Shown: positions 1,888 through 52,400, counted from the first letter of the stretch. The stretch: 64,000 nucleotides of DNA from an uncultured Candidatus Saccharibacteria bacterium (GCA_964446625.1 CAYUPH010000002.1:5743-69742), one strand, 5' to 3'. Program-made: numbers and translations. Notes: generated from the sequence alone by a model not told the origin.

Positions 1888-1896
1888 TGATATAAT
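1888..1896 (+). promoter_or_regulatory. Extended -10 (TGaTATAAT) 6 nt upstream of the ATG at 1903, leaderless configuration
   Basis: Sequence tgatataat gtacac ATG; no SD sequence present. Confidence 0.4.
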
Positions 1897-1902
1897 GTAC
1901 AC

Positions 1903-2424
1903 ATGTCACATATCAATATAGAAATAAAAGCGCGTTGTTTTAATCAAGATAGAATTAGAGAAATTCTTAAAAATGAGAACGCGGATTTTAAGGGAGTCGA
2001 TCACCAAATTGATACTTACTTTAAATCCCCTAACGGACGTCTCAAATTGCGCCAGGGCAACATAGAAAATTTTCTTATTTTTTATAATCGAGAAGATAAA
2101 GAAGGACCGAAGCAATCCGACGTCACATTACTAAAGATAGACCCTGGTAACTCGCCCAAAAATATTCTTGAACAAGCAATAGGGATACTAGTAGAAGTTG
2201 ATAAACAAAGAGAAATTTACTTTATTGGAAATATAAAATTTCACTTAGATAACGTGAAAGACCTTGGTACATTTGTTGAAGTTGAAGCAATAGACAAAGA
2301 TGGCTCAATTGGGAAAGAGAAACTACTTGAACAATGTAATGAGTATTTAAAAAAGTTCGATATAAAGGACAAAGACCTGATTTCTGTTTCTTATAGTGAT
2401 TTGTTGCTTAAAAATAATTCATAA
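1903..2424 (+). CDS. CYTH-domain protein (class IV adenylate cyclase / triphosphate tunnel metalloenzyme family)
   Basis: N-terminal EIEIKARC-type motif (INIEIKARC) and the overall 173-aa CYTH pattern. Lies in an AT-rich region (about 32% GC). Confidence 0.7.
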   Translation: MSHINIEIKARCFNQDRIREILKNENADFKGVDHQIDTYFKSPNGRLKLRQGNIENFLIFYNREDKEGPKQSDVTLLKIDPGNSPKNILEQAIGILVEVDKQREIYFIGNIKFHLDNVKDLGTFVEVEAIDKDGSIGKEKLLEQCNEYLKKFDIKDKDLISVSYSDLLLKNNS

Positions 2425-2455
2425 AATCACCTAATTTCTTTGCTATAATATACAC

Positions 2456-2758
2456 ATGATCAAAGAATACCTCGCGTACTTAAAAGACAACCCAAAGGGC
2501 TACTGGTTTAAAGCAAAGCTTTATGGCTGGGGCTGGGTGCCAGTGAAATGGCAAGGATGGGCAGTTATCCTAGTCTATATTGTGCTCGTGACTTCCTTAC
2601 TCGCAAACGTAGAAAAAGAAATTCCGGGAAATCCTGATTCGGGAACTAATTTTCTTGTTTTAGGATTGCCGATTATCCTTCTTTCTGTTCTTCTTATTAT
2701 TGTCTGTTACAAAAAAGGAGAAAAGCCTCGTTGGCAGTGGGGACCACCAAAAAAGTAA
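2456..2758 (+). CDS. Small membrane protein, hypothetical
   Basis: 100 aa, Trp-rich N-terminus and 2 predicted TM segments. TGcTATAAT box ends 6 nt before the ATG. Confidence 0.55.
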   Translation: MIKEYLAYLKDNPKGYWFKAKLYGWGWVPVKWQGWAVILVYIVLVTSLLANVEKEIPGNPDSGTNFLVLGLPIILLSVLLIIVCYKKGEKPRWQWGPPKK

Positions 2759-2770
2759 TAGTCTTCCCTA

Positions 2771-3307
2771 TTACTTACAATTTTTCTCTAGATAATCAAA
2801 CAGTAACTCAAACTCTTCAGGGTGATCAACAAAGTTTTCATCTTTGTTTTCTATCATTCTTTTAAATTCAGAAATAGGTACTAATTTGACTTCTGAAACT
2901 TCTTCCTTCTGCCTTTTTATATCCTCTAGTTTAATTTCTGTCTTTAGTATATAAACAGGATTTATCTCATTGTTTATTAGAGCTCCTATTACCTGCATTT
3001 GTTTTACAACACCAATTAAAGTAAAAAAAGTTTCTGGGAAAACTAACCCAAGCTCTTCCTCTGTTTCTCGCACCGCTGAAGTAATATCACTTTCTCCTGC
3101 TGAAACATGCCCCGCCGAAGATATGTCCCACATACCAGGATTGCTTTCTTTTTGTGGAGATCTTTTTTGAATTAAAACCTGCTTATCTGGAGTAATGATC
3201 CATACATGGACAGATCTGTGCCAAAAACCTTTTTCATGGGCTTCTTTTTTAGAACTTATTGTTCCAGTTGGATTTCCTTCACTATCATATATATCTAAGT
3301 ATTCCAT
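2771..3307 (-). CDS. NUDIX hydrolase
   Basis: Nudix box GHVSAGESDITSAVRETEEELGL. Confidence 0.85.
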   Translation of the reverse strand: MEYLDIYDSEGNPTGTISSKKEAHEKGFWHRSVHVWIITPDKQVLIQKRSPQKESNPGMWDISSAGHVSAGESDITSAVRETEEELGLVFPETFFTLIGVVKQMQVIGALINNEINPVYILKTEIKLEDIKRQKEEVSEVKLVPISEFKRMIENKDENFVDHPEEFELLFDYLEKNCK

Positions 3308-3372
3308 ATAAAGAGTATACTTTATTTGTTCTGTTTACAAAACACATGCAGAAATGTATAGTTCTGAGTAGT

Positions 3373-3636: not shown

Positions 3637-3676
3637 GCAATAGCCCAACGTACCATAAGTTGTATGATTGGGTTTT

Positions 3677-4189
3677 TTAAATTCTTCTTATAAGCTTCCC
3701 TATCTTTTCTTCAAACACCTTTGCGTGGTAGTGCATTGGAAATGGAATAACAACTCCCTTATTTACAACATTAAAACCATCTTCTAAAAGTGGTTTTTCA
3801 AGAAGTCTGTAAATATTTGCTTTTATTAAAATTATTGGAGTTTTGGATTTTTCTTTCCCAAGAAGATTCTCTAAATCTTTTTTGAAATTATTATAATTTT
3901 GAAGTATCTTTTTATCCGCTACTTTGTCTGGAAGTTTGTTCACTGGTTCGTAGATTGGATCAACTACTATATACCCCGCCTCAGCAAACTGTCGTAGTCC
4001 CACTACTTTTGTCTCTGGGCTAAAATTTAAAAAGGTTTTCATAAAGGTTTTAAACAAAAGTTCTGAAACCCTTCCCTCCTCCTGATAAAAGTACCCCACT
4101 CCTCGCTCTGGTGGTGACTCTAGCACAAAAACTGCTTTGATTCTCCTTGGAATGTATTTGTTTCTCTCTTCTATGTAAATATTTTTCAC
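3677..4189 (-). CDS. Hypothetical protein; weak resemblance to the uracil-DNA glycosylase superfamily (family 4/5-like)
   Basis: Motif order VFVLESPPERG ... ELLFKTF ... GYIVVDPIYEP resembles UDG motif A (GEAPG), the helix, and the VYITNAVKCRPP region. This comes from pattern memory only. Confidence 0.55.
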   Translation of the reverse strand: MKNIYIEERNKYIPRRIKAVFVLESPPERGVGYFYQEEGRVSELLFKTFMKTFLNFSPETKVVGLRQFAEAGYIVVDPIYEPVNKLPDKVADKKILQNYNNFKKDLENLLGKEKSKTPIILIKANIYRLLEKPLLEDGFNVVNKGVVIPFPMHYHAKVFEEKIGKLIRRI

Positions 4190-4211
4190 TGAGTGATTAT
4201 AGCACTACAAA

Positions 4212-4231: not shown

Positions 4232-4260
4232 GTGCTATCTTTGAAGTAGACACTTTGCTT

Positions 4261-4479: not shown

Positions 4480-4546
4480 AAGTAAGGTGCTGGGCTTTTT
4501 TATTTTCTTAATGAAAACAAAATTTTTGTTTTGTTATAATTGTGGC

Positions 4547-5482
4547 ATGAAAAACACATTAAAATTTATTTTCTCAATTATCATCTGTCAGCTCGCGGGT
4601 GCTATTGGCGCCATTTTTACCACACCTTCAATCGATTCATGGTACGACACTTTAGTAAAACCTAGTTTTGTGCCACCCAACTCCGTTTTCGGACCGGTTT
4701 GGACCATCCTTTTTGTCCTCATGGGTATTTCACTATTTCTCATTTGGAAAAAAGGTTTAGAGAAAAGAGAAATTAAAATTGCTGTTTCCCTCTTTGCGCT
4801 TCAACTTATTTTAAACGTCCTTTGGTCATTTATCTTTTTTGGTGCACACTCACTTGTTGGCGGATTTATTGAAATTATTTTTCTCTGGCTCTCTATTCTT
4901 GTGTGTATTTTATATTTTTGGAGAATATCAAAAGGCGCATCACTCCTCCTCGTGCCTTATATTCTCTGGGTGAGTTTCGCTGGTTTTCTCAACTTCTCTC
5001 TCATCTCGCTCAACAGCGAGACGCCTCAAAACCCCTCTCCTACTACCCTTCCAGACGAAACAGACTCATGGAAAACCCTAGCGGACGAATCTTCGGGTGC
5101 GACTTTCAAATACCCAGAAAGTATTGATTTAAAATATGTAAGTCTCTTTGACTGGCCACCAAAAGTGCAAATTCTAAACAATAAATTTACGTGCACCGAA
5201 GCAGGAACATCGACTCTGCGCGGAGGACAAACAACAGAGGAGGAAATAAATGGCACAAAATTTTGTGTGACAAAAATCATGGAAGGTGCCGCTGGAAGCA
5301 CTTATACGGAGTACGCTTATGCTTTTGGAGTAGAGGACAAAACTGCAATTTTCACTTTTACTCTTCGTTCACCAAATTGCGGAAATTATGACGAGCCTCA
5401 AATGAGCGAATGTAAAGCAGAGCAAGACTCTTTTGACTTTGGACCGACTGTTTCCAAAATCGCAAAGTCTCTAAAATTCTAA
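4547..5482 (+). CDS. tspO: TspO/MBR (tryptophan-rich sensory protein) with a C-terminal extension of about 150 aa, soluble and Cys-containing
   Basis: WYDTLVKPSFVPPNSVFGPVWTILFVLMGISLFLIW plus 5 TM segments give the TspO signature. TGtTATAAT box at 4532-4540 lies 6 nt before the ATG at 4547. Confidence 0.85.
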   Translation: MKNTLKFIFSIIICQLAGAIGAIFTTPSIDSWYDTLVKPSFVPPNSVFGPVWTILFVLMGISLFLIWKKGLEKREIKIAVSLFALQLILNVLWSFIFFGAHSLVGGFIEIIFLWLSILVCILYFWRISKGASLLLVPYILWVSFAGFLNFSLISLNSETPQNPSPTTLPDETDSWKTLADESSGATFKYPESIDLKYVSLFDWPPKVQILNNKFTCTEAGTSTLRGGQTTEEEINGTKFCVTKIMEGAAGSTYTEYAYAFGVEDKTAIFTFTLRSPNCGNYDEPQMSECKAEQDSFDFGPTVSKIAKSLKF

Positions 5483-5513
5483 TCTCCCTTCCCTCGTCCA
5501 CACAAAAACCTTT

Positions 5514-5552: not shown

Positions 5553-5566
5553 TTTAGAAATATATG

Positions 5567-5982: not shown

Positions 5983-6012
5983 GAAGGATTTAATCTTTGA
6001 TATACTATTTTT

Positions 6013-6543
6013 ATGAAAAAAGCACTCATGATAATCGATATGCAAAAAGGTTTTCGTTTTCCTGAAACCGAATCAATAATTCCCTCAACCCAATCTCTTC
6101 GCCATCAATTTAAAGGGAGTACTATTTTTACTAAGTTTATTGATTCACCAAATTCAAACTTTGAAAAACAGCTAAACTGGACTACTTTTCAAAATAAAGA
6201 AAAACAAGAAATTTTAACAGAATTCTCTTTAAAAGACAGCGACAAAGTTTTTACACATTCGACTTATAATCCCGTTACTAATGAGCTTCTCTCTTATTTA
6301 AGTCAGAATCAAATCAAACAAGTTTTTCTTTCGGGAATATACACAGATGTCTCTGTAGCGTATGCTGCAATGACTTTTTTTGATGCAGGAATTGAAACTT
6401 TTGTCATTTCTGACTGTACAAACTCAGTACATAAAAACCAAAAAAATAAAATCCATGAATCTGCACTTGAGAGTCTTTCTCATATTCTTGGAAAAGACCA
6501 TATATTATCTTCAAAAATGGTTCTAGAAATGTATCTACCTTAG
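6013..6543 (+). CDS. Isochorismatase-family cysteine hydrolase (nicotinamidase/PncA-like)
   Basis: N-terminal ALMIIDMQKGF motif and VISDCT catalytic Cys region. TGaTATACT box lies 6 nt before the ATG. Confidence 0.75.
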   Translation: MKKALMIIDMQKGFRFPETESIIPSTQSLRHQFKGSTIFTKFIDSPNSNFEKQLNWTTFQNKEKQEILTEFSLKDSDKVFTHSTYNPVTNELLSYLSQNQIKQVFLSGIYTDVSVAYAAMTFFDAGIETFVISDCTNSVHKNQKNKIHESALESLSHILGKDHILSSKMVLEMYLP

Positions 6544-7279: not shown

Positions 7280-7337
7280 AAAAAAAGATTTGGAAAGGAG
7301 ATAAAAATATGCGCAAAGGTTTTGGTATACTTTAAAT

Positions 7338-7817
7338 ATGAAAAAGGTTTTGACACTGTGTCTTCCAATTCGCGATGGCAAGGTACTCCTTGGAATGAAG
7401 AAGCGCGGATTTGGTGCGTGTTCTTGGAACGGATTTGGTGGAAAAGTTGAAGAAGGTGAAAGTATAGAAGAAGCTGCGCATCGAGAATTAGAAGAAGAAT
7501 CAGGAATCACCGAAGCAACTCTTCTCCCTGCTGGAACTTTGGAATTTGTTTTTAAAGATAGCGACGCACACCTTGAGGTACATGTGTTTAAGACGGAAGA
7601 ATTTTTGGGAAACGGAATTGAAACTGAAGAGATGTCACCAAAGTGGTTTCCTTTTTCTGAAATTCCATTTGAACAAATGTGGTCCGACGACAAATATTGG
7701 TTTCCTCTGCTTCTCGAGGGAAAGAAATTTAAAAGTAGTTTTGTTTTTGATGAACCAAGTTCAACTACCAAGAAAGGTGAAATTGTTTCTTATGTTTTAA
7801 ATGAAATAAATGATTAA
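7338..7817 (+). CDS. NUDIX hydrolase (MutT/MTH1-like)
   Basis: GFGGKVEEGESIEEAAHRELEEESG. TGgTATACT lies 6 nt before the ATG. A possible 8-codon uORF (7309..7335) with an AGGAG SD is immediately upstream. Confidence 0.85.
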   Translation: MKKVLTLCLPIRDGKVLLGMKKRGFGACSWNGFGGKVEEGESIEEAAHRELEEESGITEATLLPAGTLEFVFKDSDAHLEVHVFKTEEFLGNGIETEEMSPKWFPFSEIPFEQMWSDDKYWFPLLLEGKKFKSSFVFDEPSSTTKKGEIVSYVLNEIND

Positions 7818-8433: not shown

Positions 8434-8466
8434 AAAAGGGGTAAAAAAAGTGCTAAAATAGAGCCT

Positions 8467-9345
8467 ATGATTAAAAAAACCGCAGAATTTAGTGAGAAAA
8501 ACGCTCTTTTCCTTGCTATAGCTCTAATCTTCTCTGGAGGAGCTTTTAGTTATATGCTTCACACTATAAAAAGCTACGATGAAACTCTTCAAAGCACACT
8601 AAACCTTCTTACAGAAGTATCCGAAGACCACCAGAAAACAACTTCCGAGAAAAGCACTCTTCAAAACCAGCTTGCAAGCGAAACAGAAAAAAATGTTCAT
8701 TTGGAATCAGAATACCAAAACGCAAAAGAGACTGCTGACGAATTAAAAAAGATTTCAAAAACTGATCCAGAGCTTTTACAAAAATATTCCAAGGTTTACT
8801 TCCTCAACGAAAACTATATTCCCAAAAAGCTTTCAAACATTAGTACTGACTACTTAATCCGAACAAACAAGCCTGAACAGTTTCTTTCATCGGTAAAAGG
8901 TCAGCTCGAAGAAATGATCGATGATGCTGAGGATGACGAGGTAACGATAAAAGTTCTCTCTGCATATAGGTCTTTCGAACAACAAAAGAATCTCAAATCT
9001 TCTTACAATGTTGTCTATGGAGCAAATACCGCAAACAAATTTTCTGCCGAGCAAGGCTTTTCAGAACACCAGCTAGGCACGACTGTCGACTTTACAACCC
9101 CAGAGATTGGAACCACATCTGTAACCTTTGAGAAAAGTGAGGCTTTTAAATGGCTTACAGAAAATGCACATAAATACGGCTTTGTACTCTCCTACCCCAG
9201 AGGAAACACCTACTACACTTACGAGCCGTGGCACTGGCGATACGTTGGCGTCGACCTGGCAACTGACCTGTACGAAGATGAGGAATATTTTTACAACCTC
9301 GACCAGAGAGACCTTGACCGGTATATAGGAAAATTCTTTGACTAA
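8467..9345 (+). CDS. VanY / M15B D-alanyl-D-alanine carboxypeptidase-family peptidase with N-terminal TM and coiled coil
   Basis: SAYRSFEQQ, SEHQLGTTVD and EPWHWRYVG motifs. Confidence 0.8.
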   Translation: MIKKTAEFSEKNALFLAIALIFSGGAFSYMLHTIKSYDETLQSTLNLLTEVSEDHQKTTSEKSTLQNQLASETEKNVHLESEYQNAKETADELKKISKTDPELLQKYSKVYFLNENYIPKKLSNISTDYLIRTNKPEQFLSSVKGQLEEMIDDAEDDEVTIKVLSAYRSFEQQKNLKSSYNVVYGANTANKFSAEQGFSEHQLGTTVDFTTPEIGTTSVTFEKSEAFKWLTENAHKYGFVLSYPRGNTYYTYEPWHWRYVGVDLATDLYEDEEYFYNLDQRDLDRYIGKFFD

Positions 9346-9799: not shown

Positions 9800-9918
9800 C
9801 CTCCCCTTTCCATCTAAAGGGTTTTGTGATACAATTTTGGTGTTCGTAGTTTTTCTTCTCTAGGCTATAAGCGTAAGGGAAAAGTACGGAGGTCGCTTAT
9901 TAGGCTTAGAATTTGCAC

Positions 9919-10242
9919 ATGCCAAATAAACTTTATGTAGGCTCAATTGCCTACCAGACAACTGACGATGGCCTTAGACAGGCTTTTTCGGCTTTTGGAA
10001 ACGTTACATCTGCGTCTGTAATTATGGACAAGATGACTGGACGATCTAAAGGATTCGGATTCGTTGAGATGTCTACTGCTGAAGAAGCACAGGCAGCAAT
10101 CCAAGGTCTTGATGGAAAGGAACTTGACGGACGAACAATCCGAGTCAACGTTGCTCAGCCAAAAGAAGACCGACCACGAGGAGGTGACCGAGGAGGTTTC
10201 CGACCACGAGGAGGATTCGGAGGAGGAAGAGGAAACTACTAA
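9919..10242 (+). CDS. RRM-type glycine-rich RNA-binding protein
   Basis: RNP-2 (LYVGSI) and RNP-1 (KGFGFVEM) motifs with an RGG/GGF tail. TAGAAT lies 6 nt before the ATG; the track start at 9913 is TTG. Confidence 0.85.
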   Translation: MPNKLYVGSIAYQTTDDGLRQAFSAFGNVTSASVIMDKMTGRSKGFGFVEMSTAEEAQAAIQGLDGKELDGRTIRVNVAQPKEDRPRGGDRGGFRPRGGFGGGRGNY

Positions 10243-10833: not shown

Positions 10834-10886
10834 ATAAATAGTTGTATTATGTTCTCTTAAAGCGACTCCTATATTATACTATATGT

Positions 10887-11234
10887 ATGCAAAAACTTTT
10901 ACAGAGCTTCAGGTATGCCAAAAGCGGTCTTCTCACAGTACTCCGCGAAGAAGACAATTTTCAAGTTGAAATAATTATGAGCGTCGCTGTATGCATTCTT
11001 GGATTTTTGGTTCACCTAGGTAGAGGCGAATGGCTTTTTATTTGCGTTGCAATCACTCTTGTTCTTTCTTCTGAAATCATAAACACTGTAGTTGAAGACC
11101 TATGTAACAAAATCGAACCCACCCACAACAATGTCATTGGAAAAATAAAAGACATGTCCGCAGCGTTTACTTTGGTAATGTGCATTGGAAGCGCTATTAT
11201 CGGACTTATTATTTTCTTACCGCATTTTTTCTAG
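10887..11234 (+). CDS. dgkA: Diacylglycerol/undecaprenol kinase DgkA family
   Basis: SFRYAKSGL, EDNFQVE, 3 TM and a C-terminal IEP/NN motif. TATACT lies 6 nt before the ATG at 10887. Confidence 0.7.
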   Translation: MQKLLQSFRYAKSGLLTVLREEDNFQVEIIMSVAVCILGFLVHLGRGEWLFICVAITLVLSSEIINTVVEDLCNKIEPTHNNVIGKIKDMSAAFTLVMCIGSAIIGLIIFLPHFF

Positions 11235-15390: not shown

Positions 15391-15443
15391 TCCTAAAAAA
15401 GTCTAAAATTAGAGCATATTAGTTTTAGATTAAATTTAAATTT

Positions 15444-16028
15444 ATGAAAAAGTATGTAGCAGAATCCTTTGGTACTCTAGTACTGTCGCTTGCAGTCCTT
15501 GCTTCTCTTATTAAATCTACAGGTTTTCCTACCGCCTTAGTTGCTGGAATCACTCTCACTTTGCTTGTTTTTATGATTGGAGCAGTCTCAGGTGCACATG
15601 TTAATCCAGCTGTGACACTTGGCGCATACTTTATGAAAAAAATTTCAAGGAAAGAAGCGCTTATGTATATTCTCTTCCAATTCATTGGGGCGCTCGGTGC
15701 AATCATTATTGTCACTTTCCTAGGATTTAAAATCCCTCTCCTTACATCTGTTTTTTCTTTTAAAGCACTTGTTGCAGAACTCCTTGGAACAGCGATTTTT
15801 GTACTTGGAATCGCATCAGCCCTTCACTCTTCAAAAGAAAATATTTTTGTTCCTTTTGTAATCGGAGGATCTCTCTCACTTGGCGCAATCATTGCTGGAA
15901 TTGGTTCAAATGGAGTATTAAACCCTGCAGTTGGGTTCGCTATCGGATCATTTAACCTTGCTTACATTGTAGGACCACTTCTCGGGGCTTATGTAGGAGT
16001 ATGGCTTTATAAAAAAATTTGCGCTTAA
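15444..16028 (+). CDS. Aquaporin/MIP-family channel
   Basis: Two NPA motifs (GAHVNPAVTLG and VLNPAVGFAIG) and 6 TM segments. Confidence 0.85.
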   Translation: MKKYVAESFGTLVLSLAVLASLIKSTGFPTALVAGITLTLLVFMIGAVSGAHVNPAVTLGAYFMKKISRKEALMYILFQFIGALGAIIIVTFLGFKIPLLTSVFSFKALVAELLGTAIFVLGIASALHSSKENIFVPFVIGGSLSLGAIIAGIGSNGVLNPAVGFAIGSFNLAYIVGPLLGAYVGVWLYKKICA

Positions 16029-25141: not shown

Positions 25142-25163
25142 GTACGAATTATACCACAGTGAC

Positions 25164-25928: not shown

Positions 25929-25950
25929 TTGTTGTTAAAATACACTGAAC

Positions 25951-26883: not shown

Positions 26884-26936
26884 GGTAAGTCTGTTTTATT
26901 TAAAAATCTTAATTCTTAATTCTATAATCTTCCCCT

Positions 26937-27512: not shown

Positions 27513-30409
27513 TTAAGGCTTTCCTTAAACACATCTCCAAGAGAACAATACTCACAGTTCTTGTCGTCACATTTTCTATTCCAAAATTCGAGACTCCAGA
27601 TTTCTTTTAAAGTCTGCTCTACCTCTTTTTTTATTTGTTCCTTATCTTCATTACTCAGAGCAAAGACTTCTTTTTGTGTTAGTCCCCTTTCAGGGCTAAG
27701 AAAGTGAAGTGTTGCGGCTCCTACTCTTCCTTCTTTTCCTGATTCTTCCCAAAGGAATTTATAAAATTTTATTTGTCGCCCCAAGTTTCCATCACTCGTC
27801 TTTGTATTTCCTAAAATTTCATTACGGGTTTTACGCTTACTGCTTTTGAAATCTATAACCTCCGCTTCACCGTTTCTCTCTGTCGACAAATCGAGCTTAC
27901 CTGTGACCGGCACTTCTAATTTAGTTTCTTCTGCTACAAAAGGAAACATGAACGAAAGACTCTCTTCGACAAACACTTTGGTTCCCGTTTCCCAAGGTAC
28001 AAAAGTTTTTAAATATGCAAAAATGCTTTCCTCGCATTTCTCTTTTGCAAGAGGAAGTTCAGCTTCGGAAAAGGCTTCTTTTTCTGCTGACTCATTTATA
28101 ATCTTTCGAATCTCTTCTTCTCCTAGGAGCACCCCTTTCTTTGCTTCAATATGCAGGCGTCTTAACACTTCGTGATTTGTGTTTCCAAGCATACTACTAA
28201 AGTCTCCTGTATCTGGAATAAGAAGAAGATTTCTCCAAAAATATTTCCATGGACAATCAAGGTAGTTGTTAAAAGCAGTCACAGAAAAGTTTCGAAGGAG
28301 AAAAGCCTTTTTTATACCGCCGAGCACCTCCTCTTTTGTATTTTTTTCTTCAAGGATTTTCTCTGGAACTTTTATATCTTTGATTTGAGTTTTTGAAAGA
28401 AGTGATTCGTCTATCTCAAAAATAAGCGCAGACGGAGCGAGCTCTCCTCCTGTATAATCAGAAAGCGAATACGAAACGGTAACATGTTGCCGTGCTCTTG
28501 TTAGCGCGACATAAAACAACCTTCTTTCTTCCTCAAGATCCGTGTCAATCCCAATTCCAGGAATATGAAGAAGATCTGCTCTCCTTCCACTCTTTTCAAA
28601 CCGTTTATCTACAACATCAATAATATACACACTATCGTACTCTAACCCTTTTGAACGGTGTATTGAAGAAAGCACCACTTCCGCCTCGTGTGTCTCGTTT
28701 GGAACATTGAGCGGGAGTTCGTGACGCTTTAGAAAGTCTAAATGAAAGAGAAGGTCTCGGAGCGAAGCTTTTCTGTTTTCTCGCACCAAATCTTCTGCCT
28801 CAGAATATATGACATTTAAAACAGAAAAATACTCCGGGTTTCCAAAGGGTTTAAGCTCTGACCTAAGTATTCGTAGAAATTCTAGAAGAGGTTTTTCATA
28901 CGCATTTTTCGACAATTTTTTAAAAAGTAAAACAGGCTCTTTTGTACCTGCCCCCATTTGTCCCGACAAAAAACCTTCCGCAAAAGACTCCCTCCTCTTC
29001 TGACACTCGGCCGAAAATTGTAAAACATCTAAAAGTGGAACATCAAAAAAACCAAAATAAAGCGCCTCCAAAAGAGCACTTTTTTCGTATGGACTTGAAA
29101 GCGCTCTAAACAAACTTTCAATCCTAAGGTATTCATGGTTATCAAAAAGTGACTTTTCGCCCTTTAGAGAAAAAGGAATCTTGTGTAATTTTAAATACGA
29201 AGCAAATTCAAAAAGCGCACTATTGTACCGACTAAGAACTGCAATATTTTTGTTTCCTTTTTTGAGTTCATCTTTAATCTCTTCTGCAATATACGAAAAC
29301 TCCTCGTCCATCTTTGAAAATTCGTATATTTGGAGTGGCTTTGGCACAAAACTCGCATTGGCAGATAACTCTTCATGGTGGCGTCCATCCTTTGAAATAA
29401 GACTGTGCGCTGCACTAAGTACAATCGAGTGAGACCGATAGTTTTGATTGAGCTCAATCTTTTTTGCTTTTGGAAACTCATCTCCAAAATTATAAAAGTG
29501 AGCAAGGGAGGCACCTTGAAAACGAAAGATTGACTGCTTATCATCTCCTACCACAAAAATGTTCGCTTCTTCGTCTCCTTTGAAAAACTTTATGACTTCG
29601 TTCTGAGCGCCGTTTGCGTCCTGGTGCTCATCTGCAAGAATAAACTGAAAATTTTCTCGCATCTCAAAGAGCATTTCTTTGTCTTTCTTTAGCGCGTCTA
29701 TAAGACCCAAAATTGTATCATCAAAATCATAAAACTTTTGTTCCTCCATTTTCTTTTCGTAAAGACTGTATACTTTTTGAAATTCACGAAGCCTCTGAAT
29801 ATGTTTTCTTTTTCGAGAAAATTCGTCCTCTTTTGTTTTTGTCTTTTTCTCTTCTCCTGCTTCTTCTGCATTTATTTTCTCCTCTTCTTTATCTATAAGA
29901 CCCGTTAAATCATCTGGGGAAACCAATTCACGTTTTAGATCAGAAATCCGTCCTTTGATTTTTCCTATTGTTAGCCCAAACTGAGAACCTGTCCTTACTT
30001 CTTTAAATGTATTTTCTGCAAGGATTTCCTCGATGATTTTCAAAGTTTTTGTCTCACTCGCGGGAAGCCGCGCACCGATTTTGGCAAAACTTTCTGGATA
30101 CTCCGCTCGCATATAGTTTCCAAACCCATGGAAGGTAAAAATGTTTACTCTAAAAGCAGCTTCCCTAATCACCTCTCTAAGTTTTTCGCGCATCGCTTTG
30201 ACTCCTGACTCGGTAAATGTGACAGCCAAAATCTCTTCGGGCTTTGCCCCTGCTTTTAAAATAATGTTTGCAATTCGTAGCGTAAGAAGAGTCGTCTTCC
30301 CTGTCCCAGGGCCAGCCACGACCATTACAGGGCCGTAAACAGTATCTACCGCCTCCTTTTGCCGGGGGTTTAGTTTACTGTACTTCTCCTCAAAAAGCTT
30401 AGTATTCAT
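27509..30409 (-). CDS. UvrD/PcrA-family helicase fused to a C-terminal RecB-like PD-(D/E)XK nuclease with a 4-Cys Fe-S motif (AddAB/Cas4-like)
   Basis: Walker A GPGTGKTT and helicase motifs. C-terminal CPWKYF...EVIDFKS...QIKFYKF...CDDKNCEYC. Confidence 0.85.
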   Translation of the reverse strand: MNTKLFEEKYSKLNPRQKEAVDTVYGPVMVVAGPGTGKTTLLTLRIANIILKAGAKPEEILAVTFTESGVKAMREKLREVIREAAFRVNIFTFHGFGNYMRAEYPESFAKIGARLPASETKTLKIIEEILAENTFKEVRTGSQFGLTIGKIKGRISDLKRELVSPDDLTGLIDKEEEKINAEEAGEEKKTKTKEDEFSRKRKHIQRLREFQKVYSLYEKKMEEQKFYDFDDTILGLIDALKKDKEMLFEMRENFQFILADEHQDANGAQNEVIKFFKGDEEANIFVVGDDKQSIFRFQGASLAHFYNFGDEFPKAKKIELNQNYRSHSIVLSAAHSLISKDGRHHEELSANASFVPKPLQIYEFSKMDEEFSYIAEEIKDELKKGNKNIAVLSRYNSALFEFASYLKLHKIPFSLKGEKSLFDNHEYLRIESLFRALSSPYEKSALLEALYFGFFDVPLLDVLQFSAECQKRRESFAEGFLSGQMGAGTKEPVLLFKKLSKNAYEKPLLEFLRILRSELKPFGNPEYFSVLNVIYSEAEDLVRENRKASLRDLLFHLDFLKRHELPLNVPNETHEAEVVLSSIHRSKGLEYDSVYIIDVVDKRFEKSGRRADLLHIPGIGIDTDLEEERRLFYVALTRARQHVTVSYSLSDYTGGELAPSALIFEIDESLLSKTQIKDIKVPEKILEEKNTKEEVLGGIKKAFLLRNFSVTAFNNYLDCPWKYFWRNLLLIPDTGDFSSMLGNTNHEVLRRLHIEAKKGVLLGEEEIRKIINESAEKEAFSEAELPLAKEKCEESIFAYLKTFVPWETGTKVFVEESLSFMFPFVAEETKLEVPVTGKLDLSTERNGEAEVIDFKSSKRKTRNEILGNTKTSDGNLGRQIKFYKFLWEESGKEGRVGAATLHFLSPERGLTQKEVFALSNEDKEQIKKEVEQTLKEIWSLEFWNRKCDDKNCEYCSLGDVFKESLN

Positions 30410-30453
30410 GTGGTTGATTATAGCATCTCAAAAATGTATATTTAAATAAGAAA

Positions 30454-41295: not shown

Positions 41296-41988
41296 CTACT
41301 TTCTATCCCTTTTTCTCCAAAGTTCGATTTCTGCGTGGTTTCCTGAGAGGAGAACCTTTGGTACTTTGTACTTTTTACCCTTCCAGAGGAGGACTTCCGG
41401 CCGAGTATAGACGACGCTCGACGCTACCCTTTCCTCTTCTCTGGAGTCAAAGTTTCCAAGAACTCCCTCAATTTGTCTCGAAATCGAATCAATCAAAATC
41501 ATCGCTGGAATTTCACCTCCGGTAAGAACATAATCCCCAATCGATATATCTTCCATTTTAAAGACTTTCTTTACTCGCTCGTCAATTCCCTCATACCTCC
41601 CACACACAAGAATAATATCGGTATACTTCTTCGAGGCTGATTTCGCATAATTTGTATCAAACTTTTTGCCGGTAGGTGAAAAGAAAACAATTTTTACCTT
41701 ACTCTTTTTTTGCTTCTCCCCTTTTGTAATTTTCTTAAAAATTGCCTCTAAAGCTCTTAGAACAGGCAATGCTTCTATTACCATACCTGGTCCTCCCCCA
41801 TACGGTTTATCATCAACTCGTAGATACGGCTTCTCCTTTTGCTTTTGAGACTTACTCGCTTTTGCAAAATCCCTAGGGTTGTAAAAACTTACCTTTATTT
41901 TCTTCTCTTTTATAGCACGCGCCAAAATCGACTCGGAAAGATACGAGCCGACAAGGTCCGGAAAAAGGGTGACAACATGAAATTTCAT
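41296..41988 (-). CDS. trmD: tRNA (guanine37-N1)-methyltransferase
   Basis: MKFHVVTLFPDL N-terminus and SPOUT fold motifs. The start is taken at the internal ATG 41988 because the upstream part of the ORF is Ala/Leu junk. Confidence 0.85.
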   Translation of the reverse strand: MKFHVVTLFPDLVGSYLSESILARAIKEKKIKVSFYNPRDFAKASKSQKQKEKPYLRVDDKPYGGGPGMVIEALPVLRALEAIFKKITKGEKQKKSKVKIVFFSPTGKKFDTNYAKSASKKYTDIILVCGRYEGIDERVKKVFKMEDISIGDYVLTGGEIPAMILIDSISRQIEGVLGNFDSREEERVASSVVYTRPEVLLWKGKKYKVPKVLLSGNHAEIELWRKRDRK

Positions 41989-42023
41989 ACCGTGACTATA
42001 CAATAAAACAAGTAAAATGAGAA

Positions 42024-42633: not shown

Positions 42634-42936
42634 TTAAGCCTTAGCTTCTTCTTTTTTCTGAGGAGATTTTCGAGGAAGAACGTTTACTTTCTTACCTTCG
42701 ACAATGTTTTTTGATACGAGAAGATTGTGGACAGTGTGTGATACCTGAGCACCTTTTGAAATCCAGTACTTTACTTTATCAGCGTCAATCTGAGTATTCT
42801 TTTCAAATCGGAAATCATGGTTTCCAAGAACCTCTAGAAAACGACCACTTTTTGCGGCGTTCTTTGAGTCAGTCAAAACAAGCTTAAATGCTGGTTCGTG
42901 CTTTCGTCCTACTCTTTGTAATCTTATTTTTAGCAT
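42634..42936 (-). CDS. rpsP: 30S ribosomal protein S16
   Basis: MLKIRLQRVGRKHEPAFKLVLTDS. Internal Met used as start. Confidence 0.9.
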   Translation of the reverse strand: MLKIRLQRVGRKHEPAFKLVLTDSKNAAKSGRFLEVLGNHDFRFEKNTQIDADKVKYWISKGAQVSHTVHNLLVSKNIVEGKKVNVLPRKSPQKKEEAKA

Positions 42937-42977
42937 AGACGAAATACTATCAGAAAGGTGCGTTTTGGTCAAATACC

Positions 42978-45206
42978 CTACTTTGCCATAGCCTCTGCAG
43001 CTGCAAACTCAATCGAGAGCACCTTTGACACAGCATCCCTTCCCATAGTGACTCCATAGAGAACCCCAGCTCTGCTCATTGTTTCTCTATTGTGAGTAAT
43101 CACAATAAGCTCTGAGTGTTTTGCAAGAGACTCTACCATGTCCCCATATTTTCGAGAGTTTGATTCGTCGAGTGCCGCGTCTGTTTCATCGAGAATAACA
43201 AAAGGTGGCGGATTTACCTGCGAGATAGCAAAAAGGAGCGCAATCGAAGTAAGCGCTCTTTCACCTCCTGAAAGCATCATAAGTCCTTTTATTTTCTTGT
43301 GTGGAAGAGACACTTCAACTTCAAGTCCTTCCTCTACTTTTTCTTCAGGGTTTTCTACTTCCCCTTCTGGCAAGACAGATTTACGTCGACTGTTCGCTCT
43401 TACAACACTAAGCGATGCTTTTCCACCTCCAAACATTGCTGTAAAGAAAGTATGAAATTCACTATTGATTTTTTGCACCCCTTCTTTAAATTCTTTGTCG
43501 AGTCTCTCTGTTAGTTCTGCAATCATTCGCACAAGATCATTTTTTGCTTCTTCAAGGTCAACCAGTTCACGCGCAAGAAAGAGGTCTCTTTCTTCTGTTT
43601 CTTTAAATTCCTTTTCAATATCAGCACCTCCTGCAACCCCTGCTTCTTCTAGCCTAATTCGCAGTCTCTCAATATGCTTTCTTTTCTCTGCTTGCTCTGC
43701 TCGGTTTTTGCCATCATTTGTCACAAACTCTTCTTCAAATCGCAAAACCTCGACTCCACAAAGAGTTGATATGTCTCCAATGTCATTCTTTAAATTCACT
43801 TCATCCGTTTGAAGGAGTCTCTCTTCGCTCTCTAGTCTTTGCAGTGCATTTCTCGCTTCATTTTGTTTTGCGATAATTTCAAAAATTTTCTTTTCTGCTT
43901 CTCTGCTTTCATCTTTTGCTTTTTCTATCTCCTCTTTCTTTTGATTGTATGCCCGCAGAAGCGCCTCTTCTTCTTTTCGAACATCTTCAAGACTTACTTC
44001 AATTTGTGTTTTCTTTTCCTTTAATGCCGAGATTTCAACCTTTAGCGCCTGAAGAGAGCTTGATGGAGTACTATGTTTGTTTCTCTCAATAAAGTGTCGA
44101 ATAATTTTTTGAATATCAGCAATACAATTCTGAAGACTCTCTGCGTCGCGCTCTGCTCCACTTAATCTCTCGGCAACTTCTCTTTCAAGCTGTTCTACTT
44201 CTTTTAGTGACACAGTCTTTGACTCGTCCTCATGCAAAGCTTTTTCTTCTCTTTCCAAAGCTTTTCCCGAAAAAGAAATCTCTCCCTCAAGACGCCCAAG
44301 GTCCCGCACCAAAGAGTCCTTCCGTGTTCGCGCTTCTGAAAGCGAAGCTTCGAGTGAAAGGATTTCAGGTGTGCTTTCTCGGTCCTTTACTCCTGCTTCT
44401 ACCGCTTTTCGGGCAGCAAGGAGCTCGGTCTCAAGCACACGCAGTTCAAGCTCCGGTGCTTTCTTTTTGTTTTGTAAATTTTCTTTTGCCTCGCCAATGT
44501 AGAGCGACTCGATTTTAAAATATATCCTCGAAGCAGAAATAAGTTCCTCGCGCATTTGTCTCGATTTTTCTACTTTCTCTACCTGCTTTTTAAGAAAACG
44601 CAGGTGCGGAGCAATCTCACGCCTAAGGCTTTCTACTTGGCGAATATTTTCATCTGTCTTTTGAAGCTTTCGCTCGCTTTCTTCTTTTTTGTATTCGTAA
44701 ATTTTGATTCCAAGAGCGTCCTCTATCATTTCTCTTTTTTCTCTTGGACTTGCATGTAGAATTCGGTCGGCTTCACCTTGAGAAATAATATGGTGTCCTG
44801 AAGCTCCAATATTTGCCTGCGCTAGGAGCTCAGAAATGTCTTTTAGTCGAACTTTGCTTCCGTTTATTGCATACTCATTTGAACCATCTGAAAGCACCAC
44901 TCGCTCAATAGATACCTCGTCAAAATCCACCGCAAAAAGTTTTTGACTGTTATCGAACACAAGTTTGACGCCCGCCCTCGAAGAGCGGGGTGCTTCGCTT
45001 GACCCACTAAAAATAAGGTCCTCCCCTTTTTTTCCTCGCATACTTTTCATAGACTGTTCTCCCAGTACGAAACGAAAAGCTTCTGCGACGTTACTTTTTC
45101 CAGAACCATTTGGTCCAACAATAGCTGTAATTGGTGCAGTAAAATTTAAGACTGTTTTTCGTCCAAAAGATTTAAACCCTGTTATCTCGAGACTTTTGAG
45201 TGTCAT
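42978..45206 (-). CDS. smc: SMC-like ABC ATPase (742 aa) with a short coiled coil and no recognisable hinge domain
   Basis: N-terminal ITGFKSF...GPNGSGKSN. C-terminal LSGGERALTSIALLFA...ILDETDAALD. Sits in conserved rnc-smc synteny. Confidence 0.8.
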   Translation of the reverse strand: MTLKSLEITGFKSFGRKTVLNFTAPITAIVGPNGSGKSNVAEAFRFVLGEQSMKSMRGKKGEDLIFSGSSEAPRSSRAGVKLVFDNSQKLFAVDFDEVSIERVVLSDGSNEYAINGSKVRLKDISELLAQANIGASGHHIISQGEADRILHASPREKREMIEDALGIKIYEYKKEESERKLQKTDENIRQVESLRREIAPHLRFLKKQVEKVEKSRQMREELISASRIYFKIESLYIGEAKENLQNKKKAPELELRVLETELLAARKAVEAGVKDRESTPEILSLEASLSEARTRKDSLVRDLGRLEGEISFSGKALEREEKALHEDESKTVSLKEVEQLEREVAERLSGAERDAESLQNCIADIQKIIRHFIERNKHSTPSSSLQALKVEISALKEKKTQIEVSLEDVRKEEEALLRAYNQKKEEIEKAKDESREAEKKIFEIIAKQNEARNALQRLESEERLLQTDEVNLKNDIGDISTLCGVEVLRFEEEFVTNDGKNRAEQAEKRKHIERLRIRLEEAGVAGGADIEKEFKETEERDLFLARELVDLEEAKNDLVRMIAELTERLDKEFKEGVQKINSEFHTFFTAMFGGGKASLSVVRANSRRKSVLPEGEVENPEEKVEEGLEVEVSLPHKKIKGLMMLSGGERALTSIALLFAISQVNPPPFVILDETDAALDESNSRKYGDMVESLAKHSELIVITHNRETMSRAGVLYGVTMGRDAVSKVLSIEFAAAEAMAK

Positions 45207-45284
45207 GGTTATAAGTATAAAGGATTAAAGGGAAAGTAGAAATACACAGTTGCAAAATAGAGAAAAAGGAATAAAATCGGGTTT

Positions 45285-48467: not shown

Positions 48468-48504
48468 ACAACTTTAAAATATCTGTTTATTAAAAATAAG
48501 TCAA

Positions 48505-49083
48505 TTAAAAACCCCTGCAAAAACTTTTGCGGTGGATTTCGGAGAGACCCTTTTTCTTTACCACCTCTATATGCTTTGCGGTGCCGTACCCTTTGTGAAC
48601 TTCAAAACCATAGTCTGGATACTTAGAGGCAATCTGGGTCATGTACTCGTCGCGAACCACCTTTGCAACAATTGAAGCAGCAGAGATAAAAGGAATCTTT
48701 GCGTCACCTTTTATGACGGTTTCTTGGAGTGGAAATTCCTTTGGCGCCCTGATTCCTCCGTCGAGAAAAATTTTATGTTTCTCTGTCGCTTCTAGTTTTT
48801 TGAGTACCGAGTCAATACCTTTTTGAATTGCTCTAACGATTCCTCTTGCGTCGATGTCTTTTGCTGAAATGAGAGCGTACGCAAACCGCGCCTCTCCTTT
48901 TTTTTCTAAATCAATAATTATTTTAAAAATTTCTCGTCGTCTTTTTTCTGTTACTTTTTTTGAGTCCCCTAGAAAAGGCAAAACTGAAAAATCAAAATCT
49001 TCGCTCGCAAGAAAAGCGCCTACTGAAACAGGTCCTGCAAGAGGCCCCCTACCCGCTTCGTCGATGCCGATAATCATTTGCAT
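48505..49083 (-). CDS. rnhB: Ribonuclease HII
   Basis: IIGIDEAGRGPLAGPV and DSKKV motifs. Confidence 0.9.
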   Translation of the reverse strand: MQMIIGIDEAGRGPLAGPVSVGAFLASEDFDFSVLPFLGDSKKVTEKRRREIFKIIIDLEKKGEARFAYALISAKDIDARGIVRAIQKGIDSVLKKLEATEKHKIFLDGGIRAPKEFPLQETVIKGDAKIPFISAASIVAKVVRDEYMTQIASKYPDYGFEVHKGYGTAKHIEVVKKKGLSEIHRKSFCRGF

Positions 49084-49125
49084 GTGTACATCATATCAAA
49101 AGGAAAATAAAAAAGACGCCTGAGG

Positions 49126-49437
49126 TTAATCCAGGCGTCCACCTTTATCACTGTATATTATCAGCTCGTCTCCTTCTTTGTAAAAGAGGTCAAATTGGTT
49201 GAGCAAGGTGATATCTGAGTCGGCCATCCCTCCGATATATTGAATCAGAACCCCAGTGACCTGACCATCTGTCTCATTGGGTATACACCCAACAACGAAA
49301 CAAGGACCCTGTGACCTTTTCGTTTTTCTGTATCGAAGGGCCCGGGCCTCAAACCGAGTGTCAAGATGATGCTCAACTTGGTTGGCGAACTCGGCAACCG
49401 TTAGCGGTTGCCTGAACGTAAAAAGAGCGTTTCTCAT
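49126..49437 (-). CDS. Hypothetical protein (103 aa), GC-rich
   Basis: ORF with its own hairpin terminator (gacgcctg...caggcgtc plus T-run on the minus strand). No recognisable motif. Confidence 0.45.
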   Translation of the reverse strand: MRNALFTFRQPLTVAEFANQVEHHLDTRFEARALRYRKTKRSQGPCFVVGCIPNETDGQVTGVLIQYIGGMADSDITLLNQFDLFYKEGDELIIYSDKGGRLD

Positions 49438-49478
49438 AACCTCTCGATACTACTCCCGCACTGTGTTAAAATCAAGCA

Positions 49479-52400
49479 ATGTCGAAATTCATACATCTTC
49501 ACACACACAGTCATTACAGTTTGCTTCAGGCTCTTCCGAAGCTTCCAGACCTTGTCAAAAAAGCAAAAGAAGAAGGTATGGAAGCTATCGCGCTCACCGA
49601 CTCTGGAAACCTCTATGGAGCAATCGAGTTTTACAAAGAATGTCAAAAACAAGGTGTAAAACCAATTCTTGGCGTTGATTTTTATGTTGCAGCAAGGACT
49701 CGCCACGACAAGGAGCCCCGAATCGACAACAAGCGAACTCGCCTCGTTCTCATTGCAAAAGACCTCGTTGGTTACCAAAACCTTATTCACCTTGTTACCG
49801 ATTCACATATTGAAGGGTTTTATTATCGCCCTCGAATCGACAAAGAGCTACTAGAAAAATACAAAGAAGGGCTCATCTGTATCTCCCCATCGTTTTCCGG
49901 AGACATATCTCTTGCGCTCAAAAACGGAAACGAAGAAGCCGCAAAAACTTTTGCAGACTTTTACAAAAAAAATTTTGGCGATGATTTTTATCTTGAAATC
50001 ACAAACCATCCCGAGATAGATGATTTTAATGCGCGAATGGATAGGCTTGTTAGTTTTGCTAATGCAGAAGGAATTAATCTGGTTGCTGCACACGATGTCT
50101 ACTATCTTGAACTTTCTGATCAGAAAGCGCGAACTACACTCCTCTCTGTTCAAAAAAGTTTTAGTGGCGGTGGATCTGATGACGAAGGAGATTTTTCTTT
50201 TCTTTCAGAAAAAGAAGCGCTTCGACGGTTTAAAAAACTTGAGGATGCGCTTCAAAACACTCTGAAAATCGCAGAAAAATGCACCCTTGAAGTTCCTCTT
50301 GGAAAATGGATGTTCCCCGAAATTCCAATCGAGAGCGGACTTTCTCCCGATGACGAACTCCGCCGTCTTGTGTTCCTTGGTTTTGACTCGCGAGGAGTTT
50401 CAAAAGATGAAAAAACTCTAGAGAGAGCTGAGTACGAGCTTTCAGTTATTAAACAAAAAGGTTACGCCCCTTACTTCCTTGTAGTAGCGGACCTCCTCCG
50501 CTACGCAAAAGAAAATGGAATCCTCTCTAACATTAGAGGTTCGGTTTCCGGCTCTCTTGTGACTTTCCTTTCTGGAATCACAAACATAAACCCGCTGGAG
50601 TACGATATTCCCTTTGAACGATTTCTAAACCCTGACCGACCAAGTGCACCGGACATTGATATGGACTACGCCGATAACAGACGAGATGAAATGGTAGAGT
50701 ATGCCCGCAAAAAATATGGCGCAGAAAAAGTAGCACAGATCGGAACATTCGGTACAATGGCGGCGCGAGGTAGCGTTCGTGATGTTGCGCGCGCTCTTGG
50801 CTACCCAGTAGCTCTTGGGGATAGAATTGCAAAACTTGTTCCAATGGGAAGCCAAGGATTTCCAATGACAATAGAGCGCGCACTTGAAGAGTCTGACGAA
50901 CTTAAATCTGCGTACAAAAAAGAAGAGGATGTCAAAAAGATTATTGACATGGCAAAAAAGATTGAAGGTTCTGCGCGACACATCGGAGTCCATGCCGCCG
51001 GTGTTGTGATTGCACCAATCCCTCTTACTGAAGTGACACCGCTTCAGTACGACCCAAAAGGTGAAGGAAAAATCATTACTCAGTACGACATGTACTCAAT
51101 TGACGAGAACAACGCCGGACTCCTCAAGTTCGACTTCCTTGGACTCAAAAACCTTTCAATTATTGCTGACACAATAAAGCTCGCAGAAAAACTAAAAGGA
51201 GTCACAATCGACTACGACAATATTCCACTAGACGACAAAAAAACTTTCGAAATGCTCGCGCGTGGCGAGACCGAAGACACCTTCCAATTAAACGGAGACG
51301 GTATGACGCGCTTTTTAGTTGAACTAAAACCCTCAAACATTCACGACATCAACGCGATGGTGGCCCTCTACCGTCCAGGACCACTTCAGTTTATTCCTGA
51401 TTATATTGCTCGAAAACATGATGCGAGCAAAATCCCTGCAATGGACCCCGCGATTTACGAAATTCTAAAAAAGACTTACGGAGTTCTTGTGTACCAAGAC
51501 GACCTTCTTATGATGGCTCACAAACTTGCGGGCTACAGTTGGGGTGAAGTCGATAAATTCCGAAAAGCGGTTGGAAAGAAAATTCCAGAAGAAATGGCAA
51601 AACAACGAAAGCAGTTTATCGAAGGTTGTGTAAAACATTCTGGTTGGACAGAAAAGCGTGGAGAAGAAATCTGGAGCTGGATCGAGCCTTTTGCTGCGTA
51701 CGGATTTAACAAAGCACACTCTGTTTCGTATGGACGAGTTGCGTATATTACAGCCTACCTCAAAGCAAACTTCCCTGCTGAGTACATGAGCTCTGTCCTT
51801 ACACACGAATCAGGAGACGTCGACAAGGTAGCAATCTCTGTAGCGGAGTGTAAACGCATGGGTCTCGAAGTTCTTCCGCCGGACGTGAACGAAAGTTTCG
51901 CGGGCTTTACGGTTGTACTTGGAGAAGATGGAAAAGAAAAAATTCGTTTTGGACTCACAACAATCAAAAACTTTGGTGAAGGAATTGCGGAGTTTATTAT
52001 CGAAGAAAGAAAACGCGGTGGACGATTTACAAGCATTGAAAATTTCCTAGAGCGGATCCAAGACCGAAACCTCAACAAAAAGTCTCTTGAATCACTAATC
52101 AAATGCGGTGCGCTCGATACCCTCTTTGACCGAGTAACACTTTTCCAAAACTTAGACCTGCTCCTAGAATACAACAAAGAACACGCAAAGAACTCAGGAC
52201 AAGACTCACTCTTTAGTGCACTTTCTGGAGGGACTCACAAAATTGATATGCGCGCACCCGTGGGCGATATGGCAGACGATAAACTTAGGTGGGAAAAAGA
52301 ACTTCTCGGACTTTTCCTTTCAGGGCACCCACTCGAAAAATACAAACAAAAGATTGACGCTAAAGGTGTTTCGATAAAAAAGCTCGAAGGATCAAAGGAA

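Follow-up and report, generated by a model that had tools for sequence, protein, structure and literature searches.

The stretch analysed here comprises 64,000 nucleotides (nt) from an uncultured bacterium deposited as Candidatus Saccharibacteria (GCA_964446625.1, CAYUPH010000002.1:5743-69742; the whole stretch is hereafter called the window), and many of its genes carry a promoter-like box placed directly against the start codon. At about one third of the window genes, and at roughly every second gene that opens a transcription unit, a -10-like hexamer, usually with an upstream TG (TGnTATAAT), ends 6 or 7 nt before the start codon. We consider it likely, as read from sequence, that these boxes are extended -10 promoters of the sigma-70 type (TRTGnTATAAT), set so that RNA polymerase would start at the A of the ATG, the seventh or eighth base past the hexamer. 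The motif, its spacing, the register of the full promoter, its conservation, the absence of Shine-Dalgarno (SD) sequences and the correctness of the start codons were all observed here. Leaderless starts had been predicted in an initial annotation of the window, and the prediction is supported by the spacing, the promoter register, a pyrimidine preference at -1, a peak confined to ATG, SD motifs at background level and the agreement on start codons.

The initial annotation had quoted ten sites, whose sequences and coordinates were all found to be exact in the window. This collection was short of about a dozen sites, most of which lie on the minus strand, and boxed starts go on to 62107, past the end at 49481 that had been stated. 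Both strands of the 64-kb window were scanned for the motif first, with no start codon chosen beforehand. TGnTATAAT occurs eight times, and an ATG stands at exactly +6 behind five of them and at +7 behind one; each of these six ATGs heads an open reading frame (ORF) of 80 codons or more. Of 111 matches to the looser TGnTAnnnT, 11 have an ATG at +6, in every case at the head of a long ORF, and most other spacings have 0-2. Compared with 200 dinucleotide-preserving shuffles of the window, which contained 1.5 +/- 1.2 copies of TGnTAnnnT-6-ATG (maximum 5), the observed number of 11 was clearly higher. The claim of a spacing-specific enrichment was thus upheld when the distance from hexamer to ATG was counted motif-first and against a shuffled control, with the peak at 6-7 nt. 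When curated starts were used, the box was found at spacer 6-7 in 21 of the 58 window genes and at spacer 8-9 in 3 more, and the upstream TG, noted earlier in most boxes, was present in 15 of the 21.

The boxed start codons appear to be the correct ones by three independent lines, namely Pfam domains, gene calls and a conserved N-terminus. Pfam domains begin near the boxed methionine, at residue 4 for CYTH and for isochorismatase, 5 for RRM_1, 6 for the PHP domain of DnaE, 9 for DagK and 11 for TspO. The gene calls of the source assembly match the boxed starts in protein length, also in the seven genes where a longer ORF was possible, with lengths of 311 amino acids (aa) for TspO, 107 for the RRM protein, 115 for DagK, 410 for the coiled-coil protein, 230 for TrmD, 100 for S16 and 682 for GyrB; the last of these lengths places the GyrB start at ATG 62107. 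Furthermore, the DnaE methionine lies 2-4 codons ahead of the conserved HLHxHS in 66 of the 75 orthologues with a locatable start. A leaderless model is advisable for gene callers on genomes of the Candidate Phyla Radiation (CPR), the longest-ORF starts being wrong in at least seven boxed genes here.

The best relatives by DnaE, at 57-74% identity, lie in metagenome-assembled genomes labelled Patescibacteria, Parcubacteria, Paceibacterota, Candidatus Taylorbacteria, Zambryskibacteria or Campbellbacteria. Judged by its sequence, the organism is an ultra-small CPR bacterium of the Parcubacteria/Paceibacteria type, and its gene content in Pfam terms is consistent with a reduced CPR genome. The analysis of this organism itself covered the 64 kb and 10 kb of flanking sequence. 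A clade set was assembled from 80 loci around dnaE in 80 related species (1.3 Mb, GC content 29-58%, with crude ORF calls). In these loci, when only ATGs heading an ORF of 80 codons or more were counted, TGnTAnnnT preceded an ATG at spacer 6 in 83 cases and at spacer 7 in 75, with approximately 5-20 cases at each other spacing. The peak is confined to ATG, since the same two spacers hold GTG 6 and 4 times and TTG 2 and 6 times, respectively. In a gene-first test, 905 ORFs of at least 100 aa were taken from the 80 loci with the first ATG as the start. At spacer 6, TAnnnT was present in 16.9% of them (background approximately 3.5%) and TGnTAnnnT in 8.7% (background approximately 0.4%).

The box of dnaE was followed through 74 orthologues whose upstream sequence could be used. 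In 36 of them the best TAnnnT stood at spacer 6, in 7 at spacer 7 and in 9 at spacer 9, and 7 had none; at a pseudo-start control placed 25 nt upstream, 58 of the 74 had no box. The flanks of dnaE are otherwise unalignable, and the position of the box is therefore under selection. In L009, a relative with 65% DnaE identity, the dnaE site reads TGcTAATAT-ttaaat-ATG, with spacer 6.

A sequence logo was drawn from 153 clade genes carrying T-12, A-11 and T-7 (A of ATG = +1), with no other conditioning. The unconditioned positions of the hexamer gave T-10 in 52%, A-9 in 72% and A-8 in 63%, which completes TATAAT. The extended -10 element emerged as T-15 (63%) and G-14 (63%), and together with T-17 (63%) and a purine at -16 it forms TRTG at -17 to -14, a form of the extended -10 that is known from low-GC Gram-positive bacteria. 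A weak -35 element was visible exactly 17 bp upstream, as T-35 (50%) and T-34 (54%). In the spacer-7 class, the entire promoter pattern is displaced by one base. The -35 hexamers of the window are mostly non-consensus, and clade enrichment in that region is limited to the TT at -35/-34, so that the -35 region would contribute little, TTG at best. A generic scan of positions 1-20000 for paired -35 and -10 hexamers showed no enrichment (35 against 40.4 expected); it is a poor detector here because the -35 elements are weak. Moreover, a pyrimidine occupies -1 in 83% of boxed and 65% of unboxed genes (p = 1e-5). In an E. coli promoter library, the transcription start site (TSS) was fixed by a Y(-1)R(+1)Y(+2) start element whose centre lay 7 or 8 bp past the -10 hexamer (93% and 79%, respectively; PMC12641261). 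Since Y-A-T is such a YRY element at 7 and at 8 bp, the A of ATG is the predicted point of initiation in both spacing classes.

The gene for the primary sigma factor, rpoD, lies at 31166-32419 on the minus strand, and its product has regions 1.1, 1.2, 2, 3 and 4 in Pfam. RpoD retains the motifs of regions 2.4, 3.0 (VPVHMVE) and 4.2. We take VPVHMVE to correspond to IPVHMIE of E. coli, in region 3.0, where H455 and E458 contact the TG. In E. coli sigma-70, the -10 is recognised by the motif in region 2.4, the TG by that in region 3.0 and the -35 by that in region 4.2. By its sequence motifs, the sigma factor thus seems to keep what is needed for recognition of all three elements. The first approximately 60 codons of rpoD encode a Lys/Pro/Ala-rich, histone-H1-like tail ahead of region 1.1, and this basic tail could give the sigma factor additional, non-specific affinity for DNA where the -35 is weak.

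The quoted starts had been described as lacking an SD sequence, which agrees with our counts. No SD-like 4-mer was found at any of the 21 boxed starts, and overall such 4-mers were seen at 3 of the 58 curated window starts and at 1 of 53 automatically called ORFs. In the clade set, SD-like 4-mers at -16 to -4 occurred in 71 of 905 genes, and in 59 of 905 in a control window, which is the background level. AGGAG precedes approximately 6% of the unboxed clade genes, with one clear case in the window, and this minority signal stems from a few relatives that apparently keep SD sequences. The upstream regions of unboxed genes are A-rich and G-poor, and these genes mostly lie 0-35 nt behind the preceding stop codon. 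A k-mer search before unboxed genes for a replacement ribosome-binding site returned A-rich words and the minority AGGAG only.

No rRNA, and no match of any kind, was found in a search of the whole 64-kb window against Rfam. L009 carries a complete 16S rRNA at 783-2324 on the minus strand (1306 bits). The 3' tail of this 16S rRNA is GGAAUAUUUCAAGG, and the E. coli counterpart is GGAUCACCUCCUUA. The L009 tail is without CCUCC, and this relative therefore has no anti-SD. According to one report, approximately half of the Parcubacteria are without CCUCCU (PMC9297842); another describes Ca. Campbellbacteria and Ca. Wolfebacteria as 'SD-scarce' and without CCUCC (PMC10783764). In the loci L052, L062, L029 and L037, SD-like motifs are commoner and boxed starts fewer, and per locus the frequencies of box and SD correlate with rho = -0.43, a value for which GC content is a possible confounder and which was not relied on. 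SD loss may not be uniform across the group.

The place of the box in transcription units was also considered. In the window, genes that start no more than 20 nt behind a neighbour on the same strand seldom have it (2 of 16, compared with 19 of 42 others; p = 0.03). Several boxes are squeezed into gaps of 2-42 nt, as at 2456, 8467, 25141, 45206, 57689, 42936 and 49083, and the upstream part of the promoter must then lie inside the preceding gene. The promoter of the membrane protein gene at 2456 fits within the 31-nt gap behind the CYTH gene, and that of the PG-binding gene at 57689 spans a 19-nt gap and the end of the upstream gene. Several boxes come after strong terminator-like hairpins.

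In the proposed mechanism, RNA polymerase carrying RpoD would bind the extended -10 promoter, melting would proceed from A-11, and initiation would take place on A(+1) within Y(-1)A(+1)T(+2). These two steps, binding and then melting with initiation on the A, are strongly implied by the promoter pattern. The transcript would begin with 5'-pppAUG, with no leader and no SD sequence. A ribosome already carrying the initiator tRNA could then take the 5'-terminal AUG directly, and downstream cistrons would be reached by re-initiation or by SD-independent entry on unstructured RNA; direct binding of the ribosome to the 5'-AUG and these downstream routes are suggested by analogy with leaderless translation in other bacteria. 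We thus infer the position of the TSS and the ribosome pathway from the promoter pattern and from that analogy.

Three other explanations were weighed against promoters that start transcription at the A of ATG. The box-ATG pairs could have arisen by chance from AT-rich sequence, helped by bias in the starts chosen in the initial annotation, which had itself counted AT-richness as a source of some matches. The window has a GC content of 40%, and TAnnnT is indeed frequent in it (2051 sites). However, the shuffled sequences lead one to expect 0.04 cases of TGnTATAAT with an ATG at 6-7 nt where six are observed, the peak is confined to one or two spacings, the motif-first scan is free of any choice of start, and the starts were confirmed independently. 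AT-richness is thus ruled out as the source by the dinucleotide shuffles, and we regard the probability of this explanation as practically negligible. In another explanation, a UAUAAU-like element would act in RNA as a non-SD ribosome-binding signal, by pairing with the 16S tail or through S1, within a longer leader made from a farther promoter, as in group B of GeneMarkS-2. The element does occur before some of the genes in tight same-strand arrays (15% at spacer 6 in the clade), and the 16S tail of this lineage has changed and is A/U-rich. However, the enriched positions are those that sigma reads in DNA, namely T-12, A-11, T-7, the TG at -15/-14, T-17 and a TT 17 bp upstream, and a motif that pairs as RNA needs no -35 in register. 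A duplex between the box and the altered 16S tail was considered and rejected as weak, the prediction for the L009 tail being only -1 to -5 kcal/mol against -20 kcal/mol for the E. coli SD:anti-SD reference. In addition, operon-internal genes of the window have the box less often than other genes, and unboxed genes show A-richness alone. An RNA signal of this kind is therefore very improbable.

It is also conceivable that the promoters are real and that the TSS lies a few bases upstream of the ATG, giving leaders of 1-5 nt rather than none. Boxes at spacer 8-9 before the exonuclease gene at 26937, the HisRS-like gene at 25951, the sortase gene at 58362 and rpsB in L081 fit this possibility, as does spacer 9 in 9 of the 74 dnaE orthologues, and a start at the seventh base would leave a 1-nt leader in the spacer-7 class. 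However, the modal spacer of 6 sets the A at the canonical seventh base, and Y-A-T is the favoured start element at 7 bp as well as at 8 bp. As a general account we consider short leaders unlikely. At the spacer 8-9 sites very short leaders are likely, and the distinction is a matter of degree; in work on Mycobacterium and archaea, leaders of up to 5 nt are functionally counted as leaderless.

Several observations weigh against initiation at the A of ATG. Before rpoB, TGgTAAAAT ends only 4 nt from the ATG, in conflict with a start at the A, and HlyD, BipA and CARDB clearly have leaders of 10-20 nt. In the clade, the contrast by gene arrangement is modest, TAnnnT at spacer 6 being present in 21.9% of divergent and 15.0% of tightly packed same-strand genes. 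Small genes missed by the clade ORF calls blur this comparison, and the modest contrast means that many boxes lie inside or just after the upstream gene. The gene-first count has a bias of its own, since a TAA or TAG that opens the spacer-6 hexamer is an in-frame stop and slightly favours the first ATG after that stop. However, the third hexamer position (-10) is mostly T rather than A or G, and the in-frame-stop bias therefore cannot make the peak. Folding of the 5' ends was tried as a test and rejected. Boxed starts were less structured than unboxed ones, but the internal windows of boxed genes were likewise less structured, which points to a GC effect and makes the folding test non-specific.

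Promoters of this leaderless kind are known in other phyla. In the GeneMarkS-2 report, a genome belongs to group C when the first genes of its operons have a Pribnow box 6-8 nt from their start; such genomes are common in Actinobacteria and Deinococcus-Thermus, and 25-50% of operons are predicted to be of this type (PMC6028130), compared with about half of the first genes here. The window resembles these genomes (M. tuberculosis, Streptomyces, Deinococcus deserti) in having a -10 box 6-8 nt before the start and no SD sequence there. In contrast to group C, in which the other genes use SD sites, the remaining genes here are without SD sequences as well. Group C genomes are also high in GC. A further difference is the extended -10 of the TRTGn form found here, typical of low-GC Gram-positives. 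The lineage differs too, the Patescibacteria being unmentioned in the main text of that report (PMC6028130). With the SD-scarce Parcubacteria subgroup, the window shares the broad lineage, the scarcity of SD sequences and, in the relative L009, a 16S rRNA without CCUCC; the accessible parts of those reports describe a lost anti-SD and the rarity of SD sites, to which a -10 box abutting the ATG is added here.

The unboxed genes, with their A-rich, G-poor upstream regions and no SD sequence, resemble those of Flavobacterium as described in the accessible part of a further report (PMC6847099). In Bacteroidetes (GeneMarkS-2 group B, with a Kozak-like A-rich context), the mRNAs carry leaders and the promoters follow a different consensus, at -7/-33; the motif found here is a sigma-70 -10 box whose distance from the ATG is that between a -10 and its TSS. 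The leaderless genes of archaea (group D; Halobacterium, Haloferax) likewise show a fixed distance between promoter and start and a 5'-terminal AUG, which here is predicted; unlike here, the archaeal TATA box lies approximately 22-26 nt upstream and is read by TBP/TFB and not by sigma. The only CPR TSS set cited, that of Nanosynbacter lyticus, is reportedly from another class. An incomplete literature search found no paper describing leaderless starts in Patescibacteria, CPR, Saccharibacteria or Parcubacteria, and CPR genomes may have been listed earlier under group C. The leaderless kind of start is thus known elsewhere, and what appears to be new is its occurrence in a Parcubacteria/Paceibacteria lineage. 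Because the phenomenon is established in other phyla, the result extends a known pattern and overturns nothing.

The two papers on anti-SD loss, in their accessible parts, leave the choice of the start codon unsaid. For first cistrons the answer offered here is that the promoter defines the start codon. A bolder version, which we hold only tentatively and rather doubt, is that this Paceibacteria lineage has wholly lost SD and anti-SD and now starts its proteins by default on leaderless transcripts made from compact extended -10 promoters, these promoters lying in gaps of 2-40 nt or in the 3' ends of upstream genes, and many same-strand genes having their own 5'-AUG transcript. If this were true, it would give a layout of 'one gene, one leaderless mRNA' with operons partly dissolved, and would answer what took over from SD in CPR bacteria without an anti-SD. 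The starts of metatranscriptome reads offer a direct test of the prediction, and TRTGnTATAAT-N6-ATG would be a ready expression signal for Patescibacteria genetics.

The boxed starts of the window are as follows, with the span of each site in brackets, the spacer in lower case and spacer 6 unless another is named. On the plus strand, the CYTH gene has TGaTATAAT-gtacac-ATG (1888..1905, ATG 1903), and the gene caller gives the same 173 aa. A hypothetical membrane protein of 100 aa has TGcTATAAT-atacac-ATG (2441..2458, ATG 2456), and TspO has TGtTATAAT-tgtggc-ATG (4532..4549), where the gene caller's 311 aa picks ATG 4547 over an upstream GTG. An isochorismatase-family hydrolase follows with TGaTATACT-attttt-ATG (5998..6015, ATG 6013). 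The NUDIX gene with TGgTATACT-ttaaat-ATG (7323..7340, ATG 7338) lies downstream of a terminator-like hairpin at 7183-7202 and is overlapped by a longer antisense ORF. The RRM protein of 107 aa has TAGAAT-ttgcac-ATG (9904..9921, ATG 9919), and the diacylglycerol kinase of 115 aa has TATACT-atatgt-ATG (10872..10889, ATG 10887). The site of DnaE, TGtTAAAAT-caagca-ATG (49464..49481, ATG 49479), is the one whose position is kept in the orthologues of relatives. Additional boxed starts on this strand were found for a VanY-type carboxypeptidase, with TGcTAAAAT-agagcct-ATG at spacer 7 (8451..8469, ATG 8467), and for a MIP channel, with the weak box TAAATT-taaattt-ATG at spacer 7 (15428..15446, ATG 15444). 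Two plus-strand genes have longer spacers, namely the near-leaderless HisRS-like gene with TGtTAAAAT-N9-ATG (25933..25953, ATG 25951; predicted leader 2-3 nt) and the RNase H-like exonuclease gene with TATAAT-N8-ATG (26920..26939, ATG 26937; predicted leader 1-2 nt).

On the minus strand, the coiled-coil/hypothetical gene of 410 aa, TGgTATAAT-tcgtac-ATG (25139..25156, ATG 25141), had been quoted before, and most of the additional starts belong to this strand. A gene assigned to NUDIX by Pfam has TGcTAAAAT-agattt-ATG (1343..1360, ATG 1345), and a second NUDIX gene, of 178 aa, has TATACT-ctttat-ATG without the TG (3305..3322, ATG 3307). A hypothetical gene of 170 aa starts with GTG behind TGcTATAAT-cactca (4187..4204, start 4189), the sole boxed non-ATG start in the window. 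The UvrD/PD-(D/E)XK helicase-nuclease gene has TGcTATAAT-caaccac-ATG at spacer 7 (30407..30425, ATG 30409), and TrmD, of 230 aa, has TATAGT-cacggt-ATG (41986..42003, ATG 41988). Ribosomal protein S16, of 100 aa, has a promoter with a good -35, TTGACC, in TTGACC-17-TGaTAGTAT-ttcgtct-ATG at spacer 7 (42934..42952, ATG 42936). SMC has TATACT-tataacc-ATG at spacer 7 (45204..45222, ATG 45206), RNase HII has TGaTATGAT-gtacac-ATG (49081..49098, ATG 49083), and a large PG-binding protein has TGaTATAAT-tgagac-ATG (57687..57704, ATG 57689). GyrB has TGaTAGAAT-aaaacct-ATG at spacer 7 (62105..62123, ATG 62107). The sortase gene, with TATAAT-N9-ATG (58360..58380, ATG 58362), is near-leaderless.

Other features of the window were recorded as well. 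Terminator-like sites are enriched in positions 1-20000 (27 against 16.3 expected). Long perfect hairpins with T-runs, which are likely intrinsic terminators, lie at 1498-1543 (minus strand) and 10253-10285 (both strands), with stems of 20 bp and 15 bp, respectively. The region 5483-6012, of 530 nt, has no called gene or Rfam match and contains a bidirectional terminator-like hairpin at 5513-5545. The genes rpoB, rpoC, dnaG, rpoD and a glyoxalase-family gene form a same-strand array at 30783-41057 (minus strand) with gaps of 33, 6, 4 and 14 nt, and upstream of it lie TrmD, KhpA and S16 in place of the usual rplKAJL.

The only strong GGAGG before a listed ORF, that at 45209-45511 (minus strand), lies in the region of approximately 45512-45603 and belongs to the hairpin CCTCCcgatcaGGAGG, which stands beside an A-run. 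The source assembly calls a plus-strand gene of 70 aa there, and the minus-strand ORF is therefore probably spurious; the hairpin CCTCCcgatcaGGAGG is probably the terminator of the 70-aa gene. ARAGORN reported a 91-nt tRNA-Lys(UUU) at 48142-48232 (plus strand), within a SAICAR-synthase-like ORF on the opposite strand. Rfam has no tRNA match at these positions, and the ARAGORN call is therefore probably a false positive.

Five NUDIX-domain genes are present in the 64 kb (848-1345, 2771-3307, 7338-7817, 17531-17950 and 46296-47195), one of which is fused to NusB in a protein of 299 aa, with NusB at 7-136 and NUDIX at 165-279. The TspO protein (4547-5482, plus strand; 311 aa) has its TspO/MBR domain at 11-152, and the C-terminal approximately 160 aa have no Pfam match. 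BipA is 594 aa long according to the source gene calls, rather than 654 aa. The HisRS-like gene at 25951-26883 (plus strand) encodes a class II core of 310 aa without the anticodon-binding domain, and its product may be HisZ-like or a truncated paralogue.

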